Assembly: GCA_026016245.1 (NCBI GenBank)
Contig: CP061211.1
Coordinates: 660,001-692,000 of the forward strand
Direction of reading: 5' to 3'
Length of the DNA stretch: 32,000 nt
Source: Candidatus Pacearchaeota archaeon
GTDB lineage: Archaea > Nanobdellota > Nanobdellia > Pacearchaeales > UBA284
The position numbers and the translations under genes are program-made. The first letter of the stretch is position 1. Each line of letters starts with the position of its first letter. The notes below the pieces were generated by a model. That model was not told where the DNA came from. It saw only the letters and a program-made list of their open reading frames with translations, and ran no database searches. This document shows, piece after piece, positions 5,569 to 12,691 of the stretch.

Positions 5569-5592
5569 CCTTTTTGTTTTTTATCATAATAT

Positions 5593-5665
5593 AGCCCTGT
5601 AGTGTAGTGGTCAAGCATACGAGGCTCTGGACCTCGTGACAGTGGTTCGAATCCGCTCAGGGCTA
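5593..5665 (+). tRNA. tRNA-Gln (anticodon CUG), 73 nt, A1:U72 first pair, A73
   Basis: Acceptor AGCCCTG/CAGGGCT (7 perfect pairs only if nt 5593 is position 1), U8, D stem GTGT/GCAT, anticodon stem CGAGG/CCTCG with loop CTCTGGA, T arm AGTGG-TTCGAAT-CCGCT. Confidence 0.9.
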
Positions 5666-5677
5666 TTGTTATTTTAT
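5666..5677 (+). terminator. T-rich stretch after tRNA-Gln
   Basis: TTGTTATTTTAT directly follows the discriminator. Confidence 0.35.
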
Positions 5678-5731: not shown

Positions 5732-6565
5732 ATGTTAAAAAAATTACTTAGCAAACTTGATGAAAACCCGAATAAGCAAATAGCTTCTTCATTGGTAAGA
5801 TATATAAGCAAAAGTGAAGAATTTCAACATACTTTAAACATATTTAGACAAACAGAAGATATCAAAAAAAGAAAAGGAAGATGCCTCATAGATGGAAAAA
5901 TGCATGTAAAAGAGGCTATGATGGAAGGAATATTAAGATATTATAGGCAGCATATAGATAAAATAAATGAACTAGAACAAGATTTGGAACTTGCTTCACA
6001 AAAACAAAATAAAGAGATTGATTCTATTTGTCACGGAACAAATAAATTTCTTTATGCTTTTGGATTAAAAAATATTAACTCAGTATTAGAAAATATTGAA
6101 GATATATCTTCTTTTATTGGAAAGATGGCTTATCTTTACTCTAATTTTAGAGAAAAAAAAGGAGTACTCGACAAAACAACATGTAAAATAGCTTTAATTT
6201 ATTTAAATTCTATAAATAATTTCTTAGAAGGACCTTCAAATATTCAAGAAAATTTACTTCCAATAGTAAAAAAAGAAATTAAGGATAAAATATCTCATTG
6301 TTTTTGGAGAAGTATACACAACTTACTTCATTGCCAAACTTGGTCAGATATTAAAATTAATTTATATTTAGATGATCAATTTCTTTCAGATGAAGTGTCT
6401 AAAAAATATGAAGAAACAATCTTGAAAAATCCAAAAAATTTAACTTTGATAGCAGATAGTATAAATCCTATTCTTGAATCAAAATATCCTAAATCATATC
6501 AAAAATTTAATGATATAATATTCAAAAAAGCTGAAGAATTATCCACTTATTACTTAAATCTGTAA
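5732..6565 (+). CDS. Hypothetical all-helical protein (277 aa), orphan
   Basis: Intact ORF embedded in the tRNA cluster. TTTATAAATT (5697-5706) lies ~30 nt upstream of the ATG. No motif recognised. The region looks more AT-rich by eye than neighbouring housekeeping genes. Confidence 0.5.
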   Translation: MLKKLLSKLDENPNKQIASSLVRYISKSEEFQHTLNIFRQTEDIKKRKGRCLIDGKMHVKEAMMEGILRYYRQHIDKINELEQDLELASQKQNKEIDSICHGTNKFLYAFGLKNINSVLENIEDISSFIGKMAYLYSNFREKKGVLDKTTCKIALIYLNSINNFLEGPSNIQENLLPIVKKEIKDKISHCFWRSIHNLLHCQTWSDIKINLYLDDQFLSDEVSKKYEETILKNPKNLTLIADSINPILESKYPKSYQKFNDIIFKKAEELSTYYLNL

Positions 6566-6626
6566 ATAGATCTATTTTAGAAAATTTTATATATCTGAAT
6601 AGCTTTGCGTTAATGGCTAGGGGAAA

Positions 6627-6779
6627 ATGGCAAAAGCAAGATATGAAGAAAGGGAAATAGAAGTTGAGTGCCCTAAATGTAAAATGCATAGCAAGGTTAA
6701 GGCAAATAATTTCTTTGATACCATGTATAGTTGTAGTAATTGTAAAGAACTGATTATTATCAAGAAATTGAAAGACTAA
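6627..6779 (+). CDS. Small zinc-ribbon protein (50 aa), not in the ORF track
   Basis: My translation: MAKARYEEREIEVECPKCKMHSKVKANNFFDTMYSCSNCKELIIIKKLKD*. It has two CxxC pairs (CPKC, CSNC). The start sits in a GGGAAAATG context and TTTTATATAT (6583-6592) lies upstream. Confidence 0.5.
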   Translation: MAKARYEEREIEVECPKCKMHSKVKANNFFDTMYSCSNCKELIIIKKLKD

Positions 6780-6802
6780 GTTAAACCTGCTTCTTAGAAT
6801 AA

Positions 6803-6814
6803 CTTTTAAATATT
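6803..6814 (+). promoter_or_regulatory. TATA box for tRNA-Glu
   Basis: CTTTTAAATATT is centred ~28 nt upstream of the tRNA 5' end (6836). The same AA-CTTT(T)(A/T)AAA pattern precedes tRNA-Tyr, tRNA-Asp and tRNA-Lys. Confidence 0.5.
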
Positions 6815-6835
6815 ATCCATATCTTTATCTTTCAA

Positions 6836-6908
6836 GCCCCCATGGTGTAGAGGCCAAGCATCGGGCCCTCTCGAGGCTCAGACCCGAGTTCGAATCTCGG
6901 TGGGGGCA
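6836..6908 (+). tRNA. tRNA-Glu (anticodon CUC), 73 nt
   Basis: Acceptor GCCCCCA/TGGGGGC, D stem GTGT/GCAT, anticodon stem GGGCC/GGCTC with loop CTCTCGA, T arm CCGAG-TTCGAAT-CTCGG, discriminator A. Confidence 0.9.
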
Positions 6909-6914
6909 TTTCAA

Positions 6915-7085
6915 ATGAAAAAAATATTAATTAAGGTTTTAAGCATAATTCTTACAATCATACTTATTTTTTCCTTAGTTCTCTTAGCTGTTGGAACTCT
7001 TAATCCACTTTACTTTTGGATTATTTTAGCATTCTGCGCAGTAATAGCTTTTTTTGGAATTCCTAGATTACGTAAAAAGAAATAA
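6915..7085 (+). CDS. Small membrane protein (56 aa, two predicted TM helices)
   Basis: MKKILIKVLSIILTIILIFSLVLLAVGT...FWIILAFCAVIAFFGIPRLRKKK. I place the start at ATG-6915. The tracked GTG-6900 start lies inside tRNA-Glu. Confidence 0.5.
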   Translation: MKKILIKVLSIILTIILIFSLVLLAVGTLNPLYFWIILAFCAVIAFFGIPRLRKKK

Positions 7086-7122
7086 TGAAAACTTTTATTA
7101 ATCTTCTTTAAATTATTCTATT

Positions 7123-8556
7123 ATGGATTATGAAAAAATTGGTTTAAAGTCTGGAATAGAGATACATCAACAATTAGATACACATAAATTATTCTGCGAA
7201 TGTCCCTCCTTATTGAGAAAAGATGATCCTGACATTATTATTAAAAGAAGATTATATGCAGCTGCTGGTGAGACAGGAAAAGTTGATGTTGCAGCTTTTT
7301 ATGAACAATCCAAGCAGAAAGAATTTGTTTATGAAGCATATTCTAATTCCACATGTTTAGTTGAGCTTGATGAAGAACCTCCTCATCAAATAAATGAAGA
7401 GGCTTTGAGAATTGCATTGCAGATTTCCTTATTACTTAATGCAAAACCTCTTAATGTTACACAAGTTATGAGAAAGACAGTTGTTGATGGTTCTAATACT
7501 TCTGGTTTCCAAAGAACTTTACTTATAGCAAGAAATGGTTTTATTGATGTTAAAGGTAAGAGAATTGGTATTCAAAATATCTGTTTAGAAGAAGATTCTG
7601 CCAGGATTATCAAAAAGACAGATAAAGAAGTTACATTCAGATTAGATAGGTTAGGGATTCCTCTTGTTGAAATAGCTACAAGTCCTGATATAAAAAATCC
7701 TGAAGAAGCAAAATTAGTTGCATTAAAAATTGGTGAAATTCTGAGAAGTTGTAAAGTTAAGAGGGGAATAGGGACAATAAGGCAAGATGTTAATATGTCT
7801 ATAACAAATAGACCAAGAATAGAAATTAAAGGTGTTCAAGATCCTAGATTAATAGATAAAACAATTGAGACAGAAATTGAAAGGCAGTTAAAACTAAAGA
7901 AGCAGAAAAAAAAGTTAGAGCAAGAAGTTAGAAAAGCAAATCTAGATGGCACAACATCATTTTTAAGACCATTGCCAGGAGCTGCTAGAATGTATCCTGA
8001 AACAGATATTCCTTTAGTAAAAATAACATGGAAAATGCTTCAAGATATCAAGAAGAGTTTACCAAGACCAAAACATGAGATTAGACAAGAATTAGAAGAA
8101 AAAATGCATAGTGAACTGGCAAAAGCTCTATTAAAAGAAGGTAAACTTGAAGATTATAAAGTTCTAATCAAGATTTACAACAAACCTGGCCTTATTACAA
8201 AGATGCTAGCAATATGGCCAAAAGAAATTGCAAGCCATGAAAAACTAAGTATGGAAAAAGTAAATAGCAGGTTAAGTATGGATGTTCTTGAAACAATAAC
8301 AGAAAATTTGGCTTCTGGAAAAATTGATCAAATAGATGTGAAGAAGATTTTGGTGGATATTATAAAAGGAAGATCTGTAACAGAAGCTATTAAGATTGAA
8401 AAAGTTGATATGAAAAAAATAGAGAATGAAATAAAGAAGTTCATCAAGAAAAAACCTGGCTTGAGAATTAATGCTTATATGGGATTAATTATGAAAAAAT
8501 ATAAAGGGAAGATAAATGCTGCTCAGGTTGTTGAGATCATAAAAAAATATATTTAA
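7123..8556 (+). CDS. gatE: Glu-tRNA(Gln) amidotransferase subunit E, short form (477 aa) lacking the GatE-specific insertion domain
   Basis: GatE-type N-terminus MDYEKIGLKSGIEIHQQL..KLFCECP (GatB has HVQL). Also TCLVELDEEPPH, VVDGSNTSGFQRT, DRLGIPLVEI, RGIGTIRQDVNMSI, EIKGVQD, LRPLPGAARMYPETDIP, and a C-terminal YqeY/GatB-tail-like MGLIMKKYKGKINAAQV. Leaderless TATA candidate CTTTTATTAAT at 7091-7101. Confidence 0.8.
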   Translation: MDYEKIGLKSGIEIHQQLDTHKLFCECPSLLRKDDPDIIIKRRLYAAAGETGKVDVAAFYEQSKQKEFVYEAYSNSTCLVELDEEPPHQINEEALRIALQISLLLNAKPLNVTQVMRKTVVDGSNTSGFQRTLLIARNGFIDVKGKRIGIQNICLEEDSARIIKKTDKEVTFRLDRLGIPLVEIATSPDIKNPEEAKLVALKIGEILRSCKVKRGIGTIRQDVNMSITNRPRIEIKGVQDPRLIDKTIETEIERQLKLKKQKKKLEQEVRKANLDGTTSFLRPLPGAARMYPETDIPLVKITWKMLQDIKKSLPRPKHEIRQELEEKMHSELAKALLKEGKLEDYKVLIKIYNKPGLITKMLAIWPKEIASHEKLSMEKVNSRLSMDVLETITENLASGKIDQIDVKKILVDIIKGRSVTEAIKIEKVDMKKIENEIKKFIKKKPGLRINAYMGLIMKKYKGKINAAQVVEIIKKYI

Positions 8557-8580
8557 AAATATCACTTTGCTTTTAAAAGA

Positions 8581-9867
8581 ATGAAAAATAAAAGAGTGTA
8601 TGTGAATGAAATAAAAAAAGGTCCTGTGTTTTTACAAGGATGGGTTCATGAGCTTAGAGATTTAGCAAAAGTAAAATTTATTCTTTTGCGAGATGTTTCT
8701 GGAATTATTCAGTGTGTTGTTAAAGACAAGAAACTATTCAAAGATTTTTCAAAATTAACTCTCGAATCTGTTGTTGCTGTTAAAGGTAAGGTGAATGCTG
8801 CTAAAATCAAAAGTCCTGAAGTAACAAGGAAAGAGATAGAAATTGAAATTACAAATATTGACATTATCAATAAAGCAGAACAATTACCTATTCTAGTAGT
8901 TGAAAAAGACAAGACTATTAAAACTGATTTATCAAAAAGACTTGATTATAGAAGTTTAGATATAAGAAAACAAAAAGTTAAGGCAATTTTTTATATCCAG
9001 AGTGAGATTGTTCATACTTTCAGAGAATTTTTCAAAAAAAATAAATTTGTGGAAATCCAAACACCTTGTATTATAGCAAGTGCAAGTGAAGGTGGGACAG
9101 CTTTATTTCCTGTTCAGTATTTTGAGAAGAAAGCATTTCTTGCTCAGAGTCCTCAGTTATACAAGCAGTTAGCAGCAATAAGTTTTGAAAAAGTTACTTG
9201 TGTTGTTCCTGTATGGCGTGCAGAAAAACACAATACAGTAAGACATCTGAATGAATCAAGACAGATGGATATGGAAATGGCTTTTGCAGATGATTTTGAT
9301 GTTATGAAATATCTTGAAGCCTGTATTCAGTTTATGATTTCTGAAGTTAATAAGAATTGTAAGAAAGAACTTGAACTTCTAAGCCTGAAATTGAAAATTC
9401 CTAAAGCAAAATATTTGAGTTATGATGAAACAATCAAACTTTTACAAAAAAATAAATCTAAAACAAAGCAAGGTGAGGATTTAGCACCTGAAGATGAGAA
9501 AATACTTTATAAATTATATCCTGATACTATTATTTTTGTGCATTCTTGGCCTAATAAATTGAAACCATTCTACATCTGGCCAAAAGACAAGAAGGTTAGT
9601 GCAGGTTTTGATGCACTTTATGGCGGCATCGAAATATCAAGTGGAGGCCAGAGAGTTCATGTTCCAGAAATTTTAATAAAAAGGCTTAAGGAACAGAGAT
9701 TAAATCCAGCTAACTTTAAACATTATATTGATTCTTTCCGTTTTGGAGCTCCTTATCATTCTGGCTGGTCAATAGGGTTAGAAAGATTCACTATGGCTTT
9801 GTTGGGATTAGATAATATACGTGAGGGTTGCTTGTTTCCTCGTGATAGAGAAAGATTAACTCCTTAA
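8581..9867 (+). CDS. aspS: Aspartyl-tRNA synthetase, archaeal type (class IIb)
   Basis: An N-terminal OB-fold region (VFLQGWVHELRDLAKVKFILLRD) is followed by class II motifs: WRAEKHNTVRHLNESRQMDMEMAF, GGIEISSGGQRVH, GAPYHSGWSIGLERFTMALLGLDNIREGCLFPRDRERLTP. Confidence 0.85.
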   Translation: MKNKRVYVNEIKKGPVFLQGWVHELRDLAKVKFILLRDVSGIIQCVVKDKKLFKDFSKLTLESVVAVKGKVNAAKIKSPEVTRKEIEIEITNIDIINKAEQLPILVVEKDKTIKTDLSKRLDYRSLDIRKQKVKAIFYIQSEIVHTFREFFKKNKFVEIQTPCIIASASEGGTALFPVQYFEKKAFLAQSPQLYKQLAAISFEKVTCVVPVWRAEKHNTVRHLNESRQMDMEMAFADDFDVMKYLEACIQFMISEVNKNCKKELELLSLKLKIPKAKYLSYDETIKLLQKNKSKTKQGEDLAPEDEKILYKLYPDTIIFVHSWPNKLKPFYIWPKDKKVSAGFDALYGGIEISSGGQRVHVPEILIKRLKEQRLNPANFKHYIDSFRFGAPYHSGWSIGLERFTMALLGLDNIREGCLFPRDRERLTP

Positions 9868-9873
9868 AAGAAA

Positions 9874-9883
9874 CTTTTTAAAG
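9874..9883 (+). promoter_or_regulatory. TATA box for tRNA-Tyr
   Basis: CTTTTTAAAG is centred ~27 nt upstream of the tRNA 5' end (9906). Confidence 0.5.
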
Positions 9884-9905
9884 TCACTTGTTTTTATTCT
9901 TTCAT

Positions 9906-10029
9906 CCCTGCGTAGCTCAATGGTAGAGCACTCGGCTGTAGTCTTATGCTTTCCTAAAAAGAATGCATGAGGCACTCGCAGGTGCTCGCAGAACCCGGGG
10001 TGTTGGCGGTTCGAATCCGCCCGCAGGGA
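9906..10029 (+). tRNA. tRNA-Tyr (anticodon GUA) with C1:G72 and a 52-nt intron at the canonical 37/38 site
   Basis: Acceptor CCCTGCG/CGCAGGG (C1:G72 is the archaeal/eukaryal tRNA-Tyr hallmark), D stem GCTC/GAGC, anticodon stem CTCGG/CCGGG, anticodon GTA at 9938-9940, T arm GGCGG-TTCGAAT-CCGCC, discriminator A. The mature length would be 72 nt. Confidence 0.85.
9942..9993 (+). other. tRNA-Tyr intron (52 nt), bulge-helix-bulge-compatible
   Basis: A central 4-bp helix CTGT (9936-9939) / GCAG (9988-9991) is flanked by 3-nt bulges AG|T and AA|C. Internal helices are CTTATGC/GCATGAG and GCAC/GTGC. Confidence 0.65.
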
Positions 10030-10030
10030 C

Positions 10031-10042
10031 TTTATTTTTGTT
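10031..10042 (+). terminator. Oligo-T terminator after tRNA-Tyr
   Basis: TTTATTTTTGTT begins 2 nt after the discriminator. Confidence 0.4.
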
Positions 10043-10113
10043 ATTCGAAAAGTTTATAAAACAATCAAGCGTTAAATTTTCAGTTCTTGGAAATTATATG
10101 GAGCTAATGTAAT

Positions 10114-10773
10114 ATGGAAGACGAATTAAAAAAAAGTATTTTAAAGACAGGCACTACCACTATAGGTATTGTCTGTAAAGAAGGTATTGTCCTTTGTGCT
10201 GATAAAAGAGCAACTTTAGGAGAAGGACTTTTTATTGGACATAAAAGAGTAGATAAGATTTTACCTATAACAGACAGTATAAGTGTTACGACAGCTGGGA
10301 GTGTTTCTGATATTCAATTGCTTGTGAAATTGACGAAAGCTGAATTAAGATTAAAGAAGTTGAGAACAAGAATTGAGCCAAATGTTAAAGAAACTTCTAG
10401 CTTATTTGGAATGCTTGTTTATGAAAATATCAGAAAGTTCAGTCCGATTCTTGGCATCACAGCTTTCTTGATTGGTGGGGTTGATGATAAAGGTTTTTGG
10501 TTATTTGAAGTAGGTCCTGATGGTAGCGCTTTACAACATAAAGATTTTGTAAGTACTGGTAGTGGCATGGTTGTTGCTTATGGTCTATTAGAAGATTCTT
10601 ATAAGGAAGATATAACTGTAGAAGATGGTGTTAAATTAGCGGTTAGAGCATTGAGTGCCGCAATGCAGCGTGATACACCAACTGGATCAGGAATAGATGT
10701 TGTTGTTATTAATAGGGATGGAACAAAAAAAGTTGTGGAAGAGGAAGTAAGACAAGTTTTAATTAAGAAATAA
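10114..10773 (+). CDS. psmB: Proteasome subunit beta
   Basis: Short propeptide, then the active-site threonine context KTG|TTTIGIVCKEGIVLCADKRAT. Ntn-hydrolase beta-subunit length (219 aa). Confidence 0.9.
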   Translation: MEDELKKSILKTGTTTIGIVCKEGIVLCADKRATLGEGLFIGHKRVDKILPITDSISVTTAGSVSDIQLLVKLTKAELRLKKLRTRIEPNVKETSSLFGMLVYENIRKFSPILGITAFLIGGVDDKGFWLFEVGPDGSALQHKDFVSTGSGMVVAYGLLEDSYKEDITVEDGVKLAVRALSAAMQRDTPTGSGIDVVVINRDGTKKVVEEEVRQVLIKK

Positions 10774-10801
10774 TTTTAATCTATTTTAAAAATTTAAGAA
10801 A

Positions 10802-12691
10802 ATGCCAGATATTCTAAAAACAATTTTGAATGAATTACCTCCAAAAGTAATTGATTCTGCAAATTTTGAAGGAGCTAATATAGTTGTATATACATCTGAC
10901 GAGGATTTTTTTCTTAAAGGCGAGGAAAAGATCAGGCAGGTTGTGGACAAGATAAAGAAAAGAATAGAGTTGAGAGCAAGCAAGAGTTTATTAATTGAGC
11001 AAAAGAAGGCTGAAGATTTTATCAAGAAAACTATTCCGAAAGATGCTGATATACAGAATATTTTGTTTGATGAACAGAGAAGTATTGTTGTTATTGAAGT
11101 TAAGAAACCAGGAATTGCTATAGGTAGGGGTGGGGAGATTCTGAAAACAATTAAAGAAAAGACCTTCTGGATTCCTCAAGCAATAAGAAGCCCTGCCATA
11201 AGATCAAAGATTACTGAGGCTATTCGTCATGTTCTATTTACAAAGGAAGAATATAGGAAAAAATTCTTGAATTCTGTAGGTAAAAAGATCTATAAGGAAT
11301 GGTCGCCAGAGAAAAGAGAAGAATGGATTCGTTTGACTTTTTTAGGTGGTGCGAGACAAGTTGGAAGAAGTTGTATATTATTACAGACACCTGAATCAAA
11401 AATCTTGCTTGATTGTGGAATTGATATTGCTGCCAGTAATTCAGATAAATTTCCATATCTTAATGTTCCAGAGTTCAATATAAAGGAGATTGATGCTGTG
11501 ATCTTAAGTCATCCTCATCTAGATCATTCAGGATTACTGCCTTATTTGTATAAGATAGGTTATAGGGGGCCTTGTTATATGACAACCCCTACGAGAGATA
11601 TAACTTCTCTGCTTGCTCTTGATTTTATAGGTGTGAGTTATAAAAAAGCTGTAACCCCTTTATATAGGATAGTTGATATTAAGACTATGGTTAAGCATAG
11701 TATTGACTTGAACTACAATGAAGTTACTGATATTACCCCTGATGTAAGACTTACTTTTTATAATGCAGGCCATACTCTTGGAAGTGCTATGATTCATCTT
11801 AATATTGGAAATGGCTTACATAATCTGCTCTATACTTCTGATTTCAAATATGCAAGAACAAGAGTTTTGGATTTAGCATCTTGTAAATTCCCTAGACTTG
11901 AAACTTTAATTATTGAAAGTACTTATGGTGGCAAACAGAATATTTTACCTTCTAGAAGAGATGCTGAAGAGGTGTTTATTGCTGCTATAAACAAAACAAT
12001 AAAGAGAAAAGGCAAGGCTTTAGTTCCAGTTTTAGGAGTAGGAAGAGCACAGGAGGTTATGATGATTGTTGATAATGCTGCTAGAGAAGGCAAATTGCCT
12101 AATGTGCCAATTTATGTTGATGGAATGGTTTGGGATGTCACTGCAATCCATACAGCATATCCAGAATTTTTATCACCTTACTTAAGAAGTCAGATATTTC
12201 AGGACAAGAATCCATTTACTAGCAAACTTTTCAAGAGAGTTGGGAGCCCTCAAGAAAGGAAAGAGATTATTGAGGGAGGTCCATGTATAATTCTTGCTAC
12301 AAGCGGCATGTTAGTTGGCGGAGCTTCTGTTGAGTATTTCAGAGAGCTGGCTGATAATAAACATAACAGTATTATTTTTGTGAGTTATCAAGGACCGGGC
12401 TCACTGGGAAGGCAAGTGCAGGAAGGAATAAAAGAGGTTAAGTTTAGTGTTGGAAGTAGAGAAGAAAGGGTGTCTGTGAATATGGAAACTGTAACCATAG
12501 ATGGGATGACAGGCCATGCAGGAAGAAATGAATTGTTATCCTTTGTAAATAATCTTAGCCCGACACCAAGAAGGATTATTGTTCAGCACGGTGAGGTTTC
12601 TCGTTCTCTAGATCTAGCATCAACTCTTTATAAGCTACATAAGATAGAAACAACTGTGCCTAGGAATCTAGAAACAATAAGACTTAGATAA
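10802..12691 (+). CDS. fttA: aCPSF1-type KH-domain / metallo-beta-lactamase / beta-CASP ribonuclease (archaeal transcription termination factor FttA family)
   Basis: N-terminal KH-like segments (KKPGIAIGRGGEILKTIKE), the MBL motif ILSHPHLDHSG, beta-CASP region, 629 aa. It lies directly downstream of psmB, an adjacency I recall from other archaea. Confidence 0.85.
   Translation: MPDILKTILNELPPKVIDSANFEGANIVVYTSDEDFFLKGEEKIRQVVDKIKKRIELRASKSLLIEQKKAEDFIKKTIPKDADIQNILFDEQRSIVVIEVKKPGIAIGRGGEILKTIKEKTFWIPQAIRSPAIRSKITEAIRHVLFTKEEYRKKFLNSVGKKIYKEWSPEKREEWIRLTFLGGARQVGRSCILLQTPESKILLDCGIDIAASNSDKFPYLNVPEFNIKEIDAVILSHPHLDHSGLLPYLYKIGYRGPCYMTTPTRDITSLLALDFIGVSYKKAVTPLYRIVDIKTMVKHSIDLNYNEVTDITPDVRLTFYNAGHTLGSAMIHLNIGNGLHNLLYTSDFKYARTRVLDLASCKFPRLETLIIESTYGGKQNILPSRRDAEEVFIAAINKTIKRKGKALVPVLGVGRAQEVMMIVDNAAREGKLPNVPIYVDGMVWDVTAIHTAYPEFLSPYLRSQIFQDKNPFTSKLFKRVGSPQERKEIIEGGPCIILATSGMLVGGASVEYFRELADNKHNSIIFVSYQGPGSLGRQVQEGIKEVKFSVGSREERVSVNMETVTIDGMTGHAGRNELLSFVNNLSPTPRRIIVQHGEVSRSLDLASTLYKLHKIETTVPRNLETIRLR

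Follow-up and report, generated by a model that had tools for sequence, protein, structure and literature searches.

GatE is subunit E of the archaeal Glu-tRNA(Gln) amidotransferase GatDE, and structures have been solved for M. thermautotrophicus (2D6F) and P. abyssi (1ZQ1). All characterised members contain an AspRS-like (GAD) insertion of ~125–130 residues, and in reviews up to 2022 it is the hallmark by which GatE is told apart from GatB. In the solved GatDE the tRNA D-loop is read by the tail domain. The A1-U72 pair is named as a recognition element (PMC2943598, PMC9499178). The insertion domain and the catalytic domain form a concave pocket that holds ND-GluRS, which has been proposed to explain a tRNA-independent GluRS:GatDE complex; with ND-AspRS the insertion domain clashes sterically, and this is predicted to bar an association with GatDE (Rampias et al. 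2010, PMC2943598; Sheppard et al. 2008, PMC2330236). The domain is the proposed structural basis of both the tRNA-independent transamidosome and the confinement of GatDE to glutamine. A 2022 review still gives the canonical GatDE mechanism.

Two other arrangements are relevant here. GatB of GatCAB (3AL0_B, 3H0L_B, 2DF4_B) has a cradle, a helical domain and a YqeY-like tail within ~480 aa and no insertion, and its partners are GatA and GatC. Nanoarchaeum equitans (NEQ245/NEQ396) and Nst1 have a DPANN-specific rearrangement of the Glu-tRNA(Gln) amidotransferase gene, which is cut into two ORFs (PMC3655853, Table 1). This split is the sole published DPANN peculiarity that we found for the gene.

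Here we describe a GatE gene that remains one ORF from which the insertion domain has been removed. It lies in a window of 32,000 nucleotides from a Candidatus Pacearchaeota archaeon, whose genome is a single contig of 710,724 bp and is 91.8% complete. A full-text literature search for a GatE without the insertion domain returned no paper that describes one, and the short form seems to be undescribed.

A GatE-lineage protein with a GatB-like layout

The protein encoded by the short gene passed the cut-offs of both GatE equivalog models (510.5 bits on the NCBIfam model NF003107, cut-off 456; 459.8 bits on TIGR00134, cut-off 319.55). It failed all of those for GatB (166.3 bits, cut-off 338; 150.4 bits, cut-off 314.8). 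The match to the GatE model was split, with residues 1–267 corresponding to model positions 2–270/272 and the remainder to positions ~399–619, while positions ~271–398 had no counterpart. The same two-block pattern was evident in phmmer alignments to solved structures. Query residues 1–267 and 264–411 matched residues 1–268 and 394–538 of 2D6F_C, respectively, and the alignment to 1ZQ1_C extended to its residue 625. The residues of canonical GatE that are missing number ~125, for a domain of ~125–130, and the KGVQ and LRPLPG motifs are 42 residues apart, compared to 152–206 in 110 long relatives. Pfam placed GatB_N at residues 10–306 (193.7 bits) and found no GAD domain in the protein. A GAD domain was not found anywhere else in the genome either, so the insertion has not been split off as a separate gene. 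As judged from these alignments, the AspRS-like insertion domain is missing and has not simply diverged.

The rest of the protein closely follows canonical GatE, with which it forms one orthologous family. Its cradle is 50–60% identical to the canonical one over residues 1–267, the helical and tail domains are shared, and the His of EIHQQL, LEED, the Glu of PLVEI, TIRQDxNxS and KGVQ are identical to those of 2D6F and 1ZQ1 in the alignment. Among 25 short forms (see below), the catalytic-site residues H15, E156/E157, E183, R220-Q221-D222, N224, S226 and K236 do not vary, and they are the same in both structures. The 150 best representatives of a database search were all GatE-like. In a tree of GatE-like sequences only, the window protein is sister to P0001, a long GatE of 618 aa.

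Identification of the protein as a GatB was rejected. It resembles GatB in size and in having cradle, helical and YqeY-like tail domains without an insertion. However, the fold is paralogous, with an identity of just 19–24%, the N-terminus is of the GatE type, the GatB scores are far under cut-off, and no gatA was found in the genome.

An initial annotation of this stretch had claimed that the 477-aa protein at 7123–8556 lacks the GatE insertion, and had read it as a GatE with GatB architecture from a set of quoted motifs. Every one of these motifs is present, the alignments skip the ~125 residues in question, and the protein groups with GatE, the GatB structures being far more distant. By sequence, then, the window gene encodes a protein of the GatE lineage whose domains are laid out as in GatB, and it is a variant of GatE, not a canonical member. 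A GatE of GatB size could be mislabelled as GatB in annotation.

Table 1. Features of the gatE locus (positions in the window), and GAD-containing AspRS genes of other genomes (positions in the genome or locus named).
Feature	Position	Strand	Description	Basis
tRNA-Gln(CUG)	5592..5666	+	substrate tRNA; best read as 5593-5665, A1-U72, A73	ARAGORN, sequence
tRNA-Glu(CUC)	6836..6908	+	G1-C72; tRNA that GatDE must reject	ARAGORN, sequence
gatE, short form	7123..8556	+	477 aa; Glu-tRNA(Gln) amidotransferase subunit E without AspRS-like/GAD insertion	ORF, equivalog scores, structure alignments, AlphaFold model
Catalytic 'cradle' domain	7150..8040	+	aa 10-306; kinase and amidotransferase site	Pfam GatB_N, residues invariant/identical
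Lys-rich linker	7888..7923	+	aa 256-267, KLKKQKKKLEQE region, where canonical GatE has ~130-aa insertion	junction alignments
C-terminal tail domain	8227..8553	+	aa 369-477; helical/YqeY-like	model positions ~399-619, 1ZQ1_C tail, AlphaFold
aspS	8581..9867	+	archaeal-type AspRS without GAD, 24 bp downstream of gatE	ORF, profile matches
Bacterial-type AspRS with GAD	G001:C5:30952-32700 (L106 653-2401); L107 655-2421; L108 580-2358			

An AlphaFold2 model of the short GatE, built on 25 short homologues, had a pLDDT of 90.2 and a pTM of 0.80. At the junction it runs from a helix (residues 241–260) through a short loop into strands (residues 268–283) with high confidence, and the predicted structure shows an insertion domain that has been excised cleanly. 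Its closest folds were 1ZQ1_C and 2D6F, at 32–36% identity, followed by the GatB chains. The tail domain is all-helical in the model; its Pfam match to GatB_Yqey was weak (20.4 bits) and under the cut-off of 27.

Could the gene instead be an artefact or in decay, that is, mis-assembled, frameshifted or pseudogenised? The assembly is small, MAG-like and, as noted, not fully complete. Yet no interruption breaks the ORF, which sits on the genome's one contig of 711 kb, and AlphaFold confidence stays high over the junction. Hundreds of independently assembled genomes share this architecture and keep the catalytic residues, and the pathway is essential here, with no GlnRS found. We regard this explanation as vanishingly improbable.

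Genomic context and the route to Gln-tRNA

The initial annotation had noted that gatD is not adjacent to gatE and that aspS is the next gene, and had named gatD, gatA, glnS and asnS among the genes to look for. The gatD gene is elsewhere on the contig (G000:C1:344193-345392), 323 kb from gatE. It scored 455 bits (cut-off 310) and its domain set is intact, with GatD_N and the N and C domains of asparaginase. In contrast to GatB, the short GatE would therefore have GatD as its partner, as canonical GatE does: gatA (TIGR00132) was not found in the genome, and no gatB was found beyond a cross-match to gatE itself. The short gene is the sole gatE. No GlnRS was found in the 91.8%-complete genome, a feature shared with the genomes of canonical GatE. 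The only match to the glnS model (217 bits, cut-off 426) is the archaeal GluRS, of which there is one (404 bits on TIGR00463). The genome also encodes a true AsnRS (415 bits, cut-off 342.6). Since no GlnRS was found, the GatDE pathway would be indispensable in this genome.

The genes for tRNA-Gln(CUG) and tRNA-Glu(CUC) are located just upstream of gatE, and the A1-U72 pair of the window tRNA-Gln agrees with the published GatDE identity element. For tRNA-Gln(CUG), ARAGORN gave a length of 75 nt and put the anticodon at position 36; the sequence is better described as a standard tRNA of 73 nt (5593–5665). The flanking T and T could lengthen the acceptor helix of the precursor to 8 bp. An ORF of 277 aa (5732–6565, + strand) lies between the two tRNA genes, upstream of gatE.

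Downstream, aspS is probably co-transcribed with gatE, and it follows the short gatE in the closest relatives too. A scan of 6500–10200 for sigma-70 promoters and terminators gave sites that were not above those in shuffled sequence, the sigma-70 model being unsuited to an archaeon. The ORFs beyond aspS (10114–12691, + strand) fit an archaeal housekeeping gene cluster: by eye only, 10114–10773 resembles a proteasome beta subunit and 10802–12691 (+ strand) a beta-CASP/KH ribonuclease of the aCPSF1 type.

Pairing with GatD and a proposed mechanism

Whether so small a subunit still pairs with GatD was a question raised by the initial annotation, and the answer is very probably yes. An intact gatD is on the contig, and in relatives gatD lies on the same strand directly upstream of the short gatE (loci L029, L048, L049, L052, L057, L066, L067, L071, L072 and L073) or, in many of the other loci examined, within 1–3 kb of it. 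The lack of linkage between gatD and gatE in the window genome is an argument against a functional GatDE, as is the sub-threshold Pfam match of the tail domain. Set against this, the intact gatD, the relatives with adjacent gatD, the invariant catalytic residues and the failure to find a GlnRS together point to one that functions, and the persistence of the short form under purifying selection also argues for function. We consider it highly likely that the short GatE belongs to a functional archaeal GatDE that amidates Glu-tRNA(Gln), and that the GAD domain is all it has lost.

Our inferences on how the enzyme works, on its partnership with GatD and on the effect of the domain loss are as follows. 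The single archaeal-type GluRS would mischarge tRNA(Gln) with Glu, and the cradle and tail domains of the short GatE would bind the resulting Glu-tRNA(Gln). The subunit would then use ATP to phosphorylate the gamma-carboxyl group, and amidate it with ammonia supplied by the distantly encoded GatD. In the window genome this would be the only route to the product, Gln-tRNA(Gln). The stable GluRS:GatDE transamidosome should have been lost or weakened in the short enzyme, which would behave more like GatCAB and meet GluRS only on the tRNA, or never.

The short form is common in the class

The initial annotation had taken the gene to be a one-off. This did not stand, as the short form is a common and recurrent lineage variant. 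An exhaustive HMMER search covered 1.84 billion representatives, and 25 of the top 150 matches, those examined, were proteins of 455–496 aa that aligned to the query end to end. They represent 25 short GatE clusters at 50% identity and are conserved along their full length. The spacing between the motifs that flank the junction was bimodal, at 38–44 residues in 26 sequences (query included) and 152–206 in 110, and only two sequences had intermediate values (120 and 127 residues).

Genomes of the window's phylum, all from the same class, gave a similar picture, with GatE found in 397 out of 401. Approximate counts, read by eye from best E-values (long, 1e-140 or stronger; short-like, about 1e-88 to 1e-122 with split matches), were about 178 short (~44%), 201 long, 7 intermediate and 11 weak or fragmentary, and 4 genomes had no match. 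These tallies, like those of GAD and AsnRS below, take in six unpublished genomes (G243, G244, G322, G333, G360 and G396); dropping them would shift the counts by at most 6, and none of our individual claims depends on them. Within the window's order, all genomes save one have a short GatE. Among named DPANN loci, ~65 of 80 carry the short form. The GTDB loci with short forms are labelled Woesearchaeota, Pacearchaeota, Nanoarchaeota and Nanoarchaeia, together with a few Aenigmatarchaeota, Parvarchaeum and Iainarchaeum.

A search for GAD (PF02938) was rejected as a means of counting long GatE. It matched 291 of the 401 genomes, including ones with short GatE, because many carry a bacterial-type AspRS with GAD. 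In genomes with short GatE the domain sits in this AspRS of ~585 aa, as verified for G001, G117 and G206. Such an AspRS with its GAD insertion occurs in many genomes of the class and is unlike the archaeal-type AspRS of the window. The remaining 110 genomes have no GAD at all, and include nearly all of the window's order.

Short forms arose many times

To place the short forms relative to the long, we stripped the insert columns from an alignment of 138 complete sequences and built an unrooted maximum-likelihood tree. Explaining the short state takes 20 changes on this tree, of which well-supported branches force at least 12. Short and long forms are paired as sisters with 98–99% support in P0039/P0093, P0018/P0062, P0042/P0139 and P0079/P0087. 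N-terminal identity is 56–74% within such pairs, compared to 46–55% between short forms of different clades. Constraining all short forms to one clade made the tree 809 log-likelihood units worse and was rejected (AU test in IQ-TREE, p = 2e-8; 58 sequences, 435 columns). The linkers that replace the domain vary in both sequence and length, being 38, 41–42 or 44 residues long. Even a single genus (g4) contains both forms: the long GatE of G319 (608 aa) and the short GatE of three congeners share 63% identity. Among the congeners identity is 69–73%, and all of these are only 51–54% identical to the window protein. On the evidence of these trees, the short forms are not one clade and have multiple origins.

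We read the direction of change as loss of the domain, because short forms nest among long ones, partial domains exist, and the characterised GatE of other phyla all have the domain; this reading comes from unrooted trees, and lateral exchange of alleles may also have played a part. P0117 and P0122 keep 120–127 residues between the anchor motifs, and in family f19 (genus g40) GAD scores only weakly (E about 1e-6 to 1e-10) alongside intermediate GatE scores. This suggests that these are partly eroded insertion domains, at intermediate stages of loss.

Under the reverse order of events, a short, GatB-like form would be ancestral, GAD would have been gained repeatedly or spread laterally to give the long form, and the window gene would be a relic and not a reduced form. 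The layout does match GatB topology nearly gap-free in an alignment to 3AL0_B, and counts of changes on unrooted trees cannot separate gain from loss. However, the nesting of short forms is inside long-form clades, the partial domains of P0117, P0122 and f19 fit erosion, and deleting the domain repeatedly is far more plausible than inserting it each time at one position. Moreover, the domain is present in all characterised GatE from other archaeal phyla. An ancestral short form is very unlikely. Repeated loss of the domain, the reading we prefer, would fit the idea that selection on this accessory domain is relaxed in DPANN genomes, which are streamlined.

Predicted consequences for the archaeal transamidosome

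The domain is absent from ~44% of the sampled genomes of the class and has disappeared on twelve or more occasions, one of them inside a genus, so it is dispensable in nature. As the insertion domain is the proposed dock for ND-GluRS (PMC2943598), the transamidosome of the short GatE should be weaker, tRNA-dependent or not formed at all. This altered interaction with GluRS should hold to the extent that modelling and a pull-down for one euryarchaeal enzyme can be carried over. The short GatE brings no new chemistry; what it challenges is the generality of the archaeal transamidosome model, which may fail for a large part of archaeal diversity. We consider it much more probable than the Asp/Glu-dual activity discussed below that the tRNA-independent GluRS:GatDE 'archaeal transamidosome' is absent from nearly half of Nanoarchaeia, and hence is not a general archaeal feature. 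Natural pairs of long and short orthologues, such as G319 and its congeners, make the function of the domain directly testable.

Specificity for Asp-tRNA(Asn) and the neighbouring AspRS

With the steric block gone, the short GatDE might also convert Asp-tRNA(Asn) together with the adjacent AspRS, a relaxed specificity that the initial annotation had put forward. In favour of this, the insertion domain is predicted to keep GatDE from ND-AspRS (PMC2943598, PMC2330236), aspS begins 24 bp after gatE and follows the short gatE in the closest relatives, and the gatA and gatB profiles found no GatCAB in the window genome. However, the window genome has a true AsnRS, well above cut-off, and its AspRS has the longer L1 loop of AsnRS-type genomes (see below). 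Genomes of the order carry either AsnRS or a genuine GatB, whatever the form of their GatE, and many genomes have short GatE and GatCAB together. Nearly all of the 401 genomes of the class have AsnRS or GatCAB, with little regard to their GatE form. Only about seven have neither a GatB-like match nor an AsnRS, and these are spread over long (G053, G187 and G352) and short forms (G102, G177, G193 and G331), as incompleteness would give. Conversion of Asp-tRNA(Asn) by the short GatDE is thus unneeded and unsupported, and has in our view a very low probability. An Asp/Glu-dual amidotransferase activity of the short GatDE, whether latent or actual, with physical coupling to the neighbouring AspRS is likewise distinctly unlikely.

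AsnRS scored above cut-off in 251 of the 401 genomes of the class. In the window's order, genomes with AsnRS have no extra GatB-like match, whereas those without it have a genuine GatB (400–490 bits, cut-off 315). The L1 loop in the anticodon-binding part of AspRS differed between the two types in a small sample that is phylogenetically non-independent: it reads 'SK-QAPGG-EI' in three GatCAB-type genomes, which lack AsnRS and whose AspRS must be non-discriminating, and is 4–5 residues longer ('AKIKSPEVTRKE'-like) in six AsnRS-type genomes, which lack GatCAB, the window's included. We infer from its sequence that the window AspRS belongs to the class that needs no Asp-tRNA(Asn) amidotransferase.

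This loop, in the OB fold (residues ~70–85; window 8581–9867 and loci L098-L105), co-varies with the Asn-tRNA route and may mark discriminating versus non-discriminating AspRS in the window's order. A residue rule for telling discriminating from non-discriminating archaeal AspRS uses Trp/His at position 26 and Lys/Pro at position 85. When the His/Trp position was compared between AsnRS-type and GatCAB-type genomes, it did not separate the two classes, and loop length served instead.

AsnRS and GatCAB look nearly mutually exclusive in the window's order, and the switch occurs between genera of one family (f2). This implies that the Asn-tRNA route has often been replaced in the order. G319 is an exception, with an AsnRS and extra GatB-like matches.
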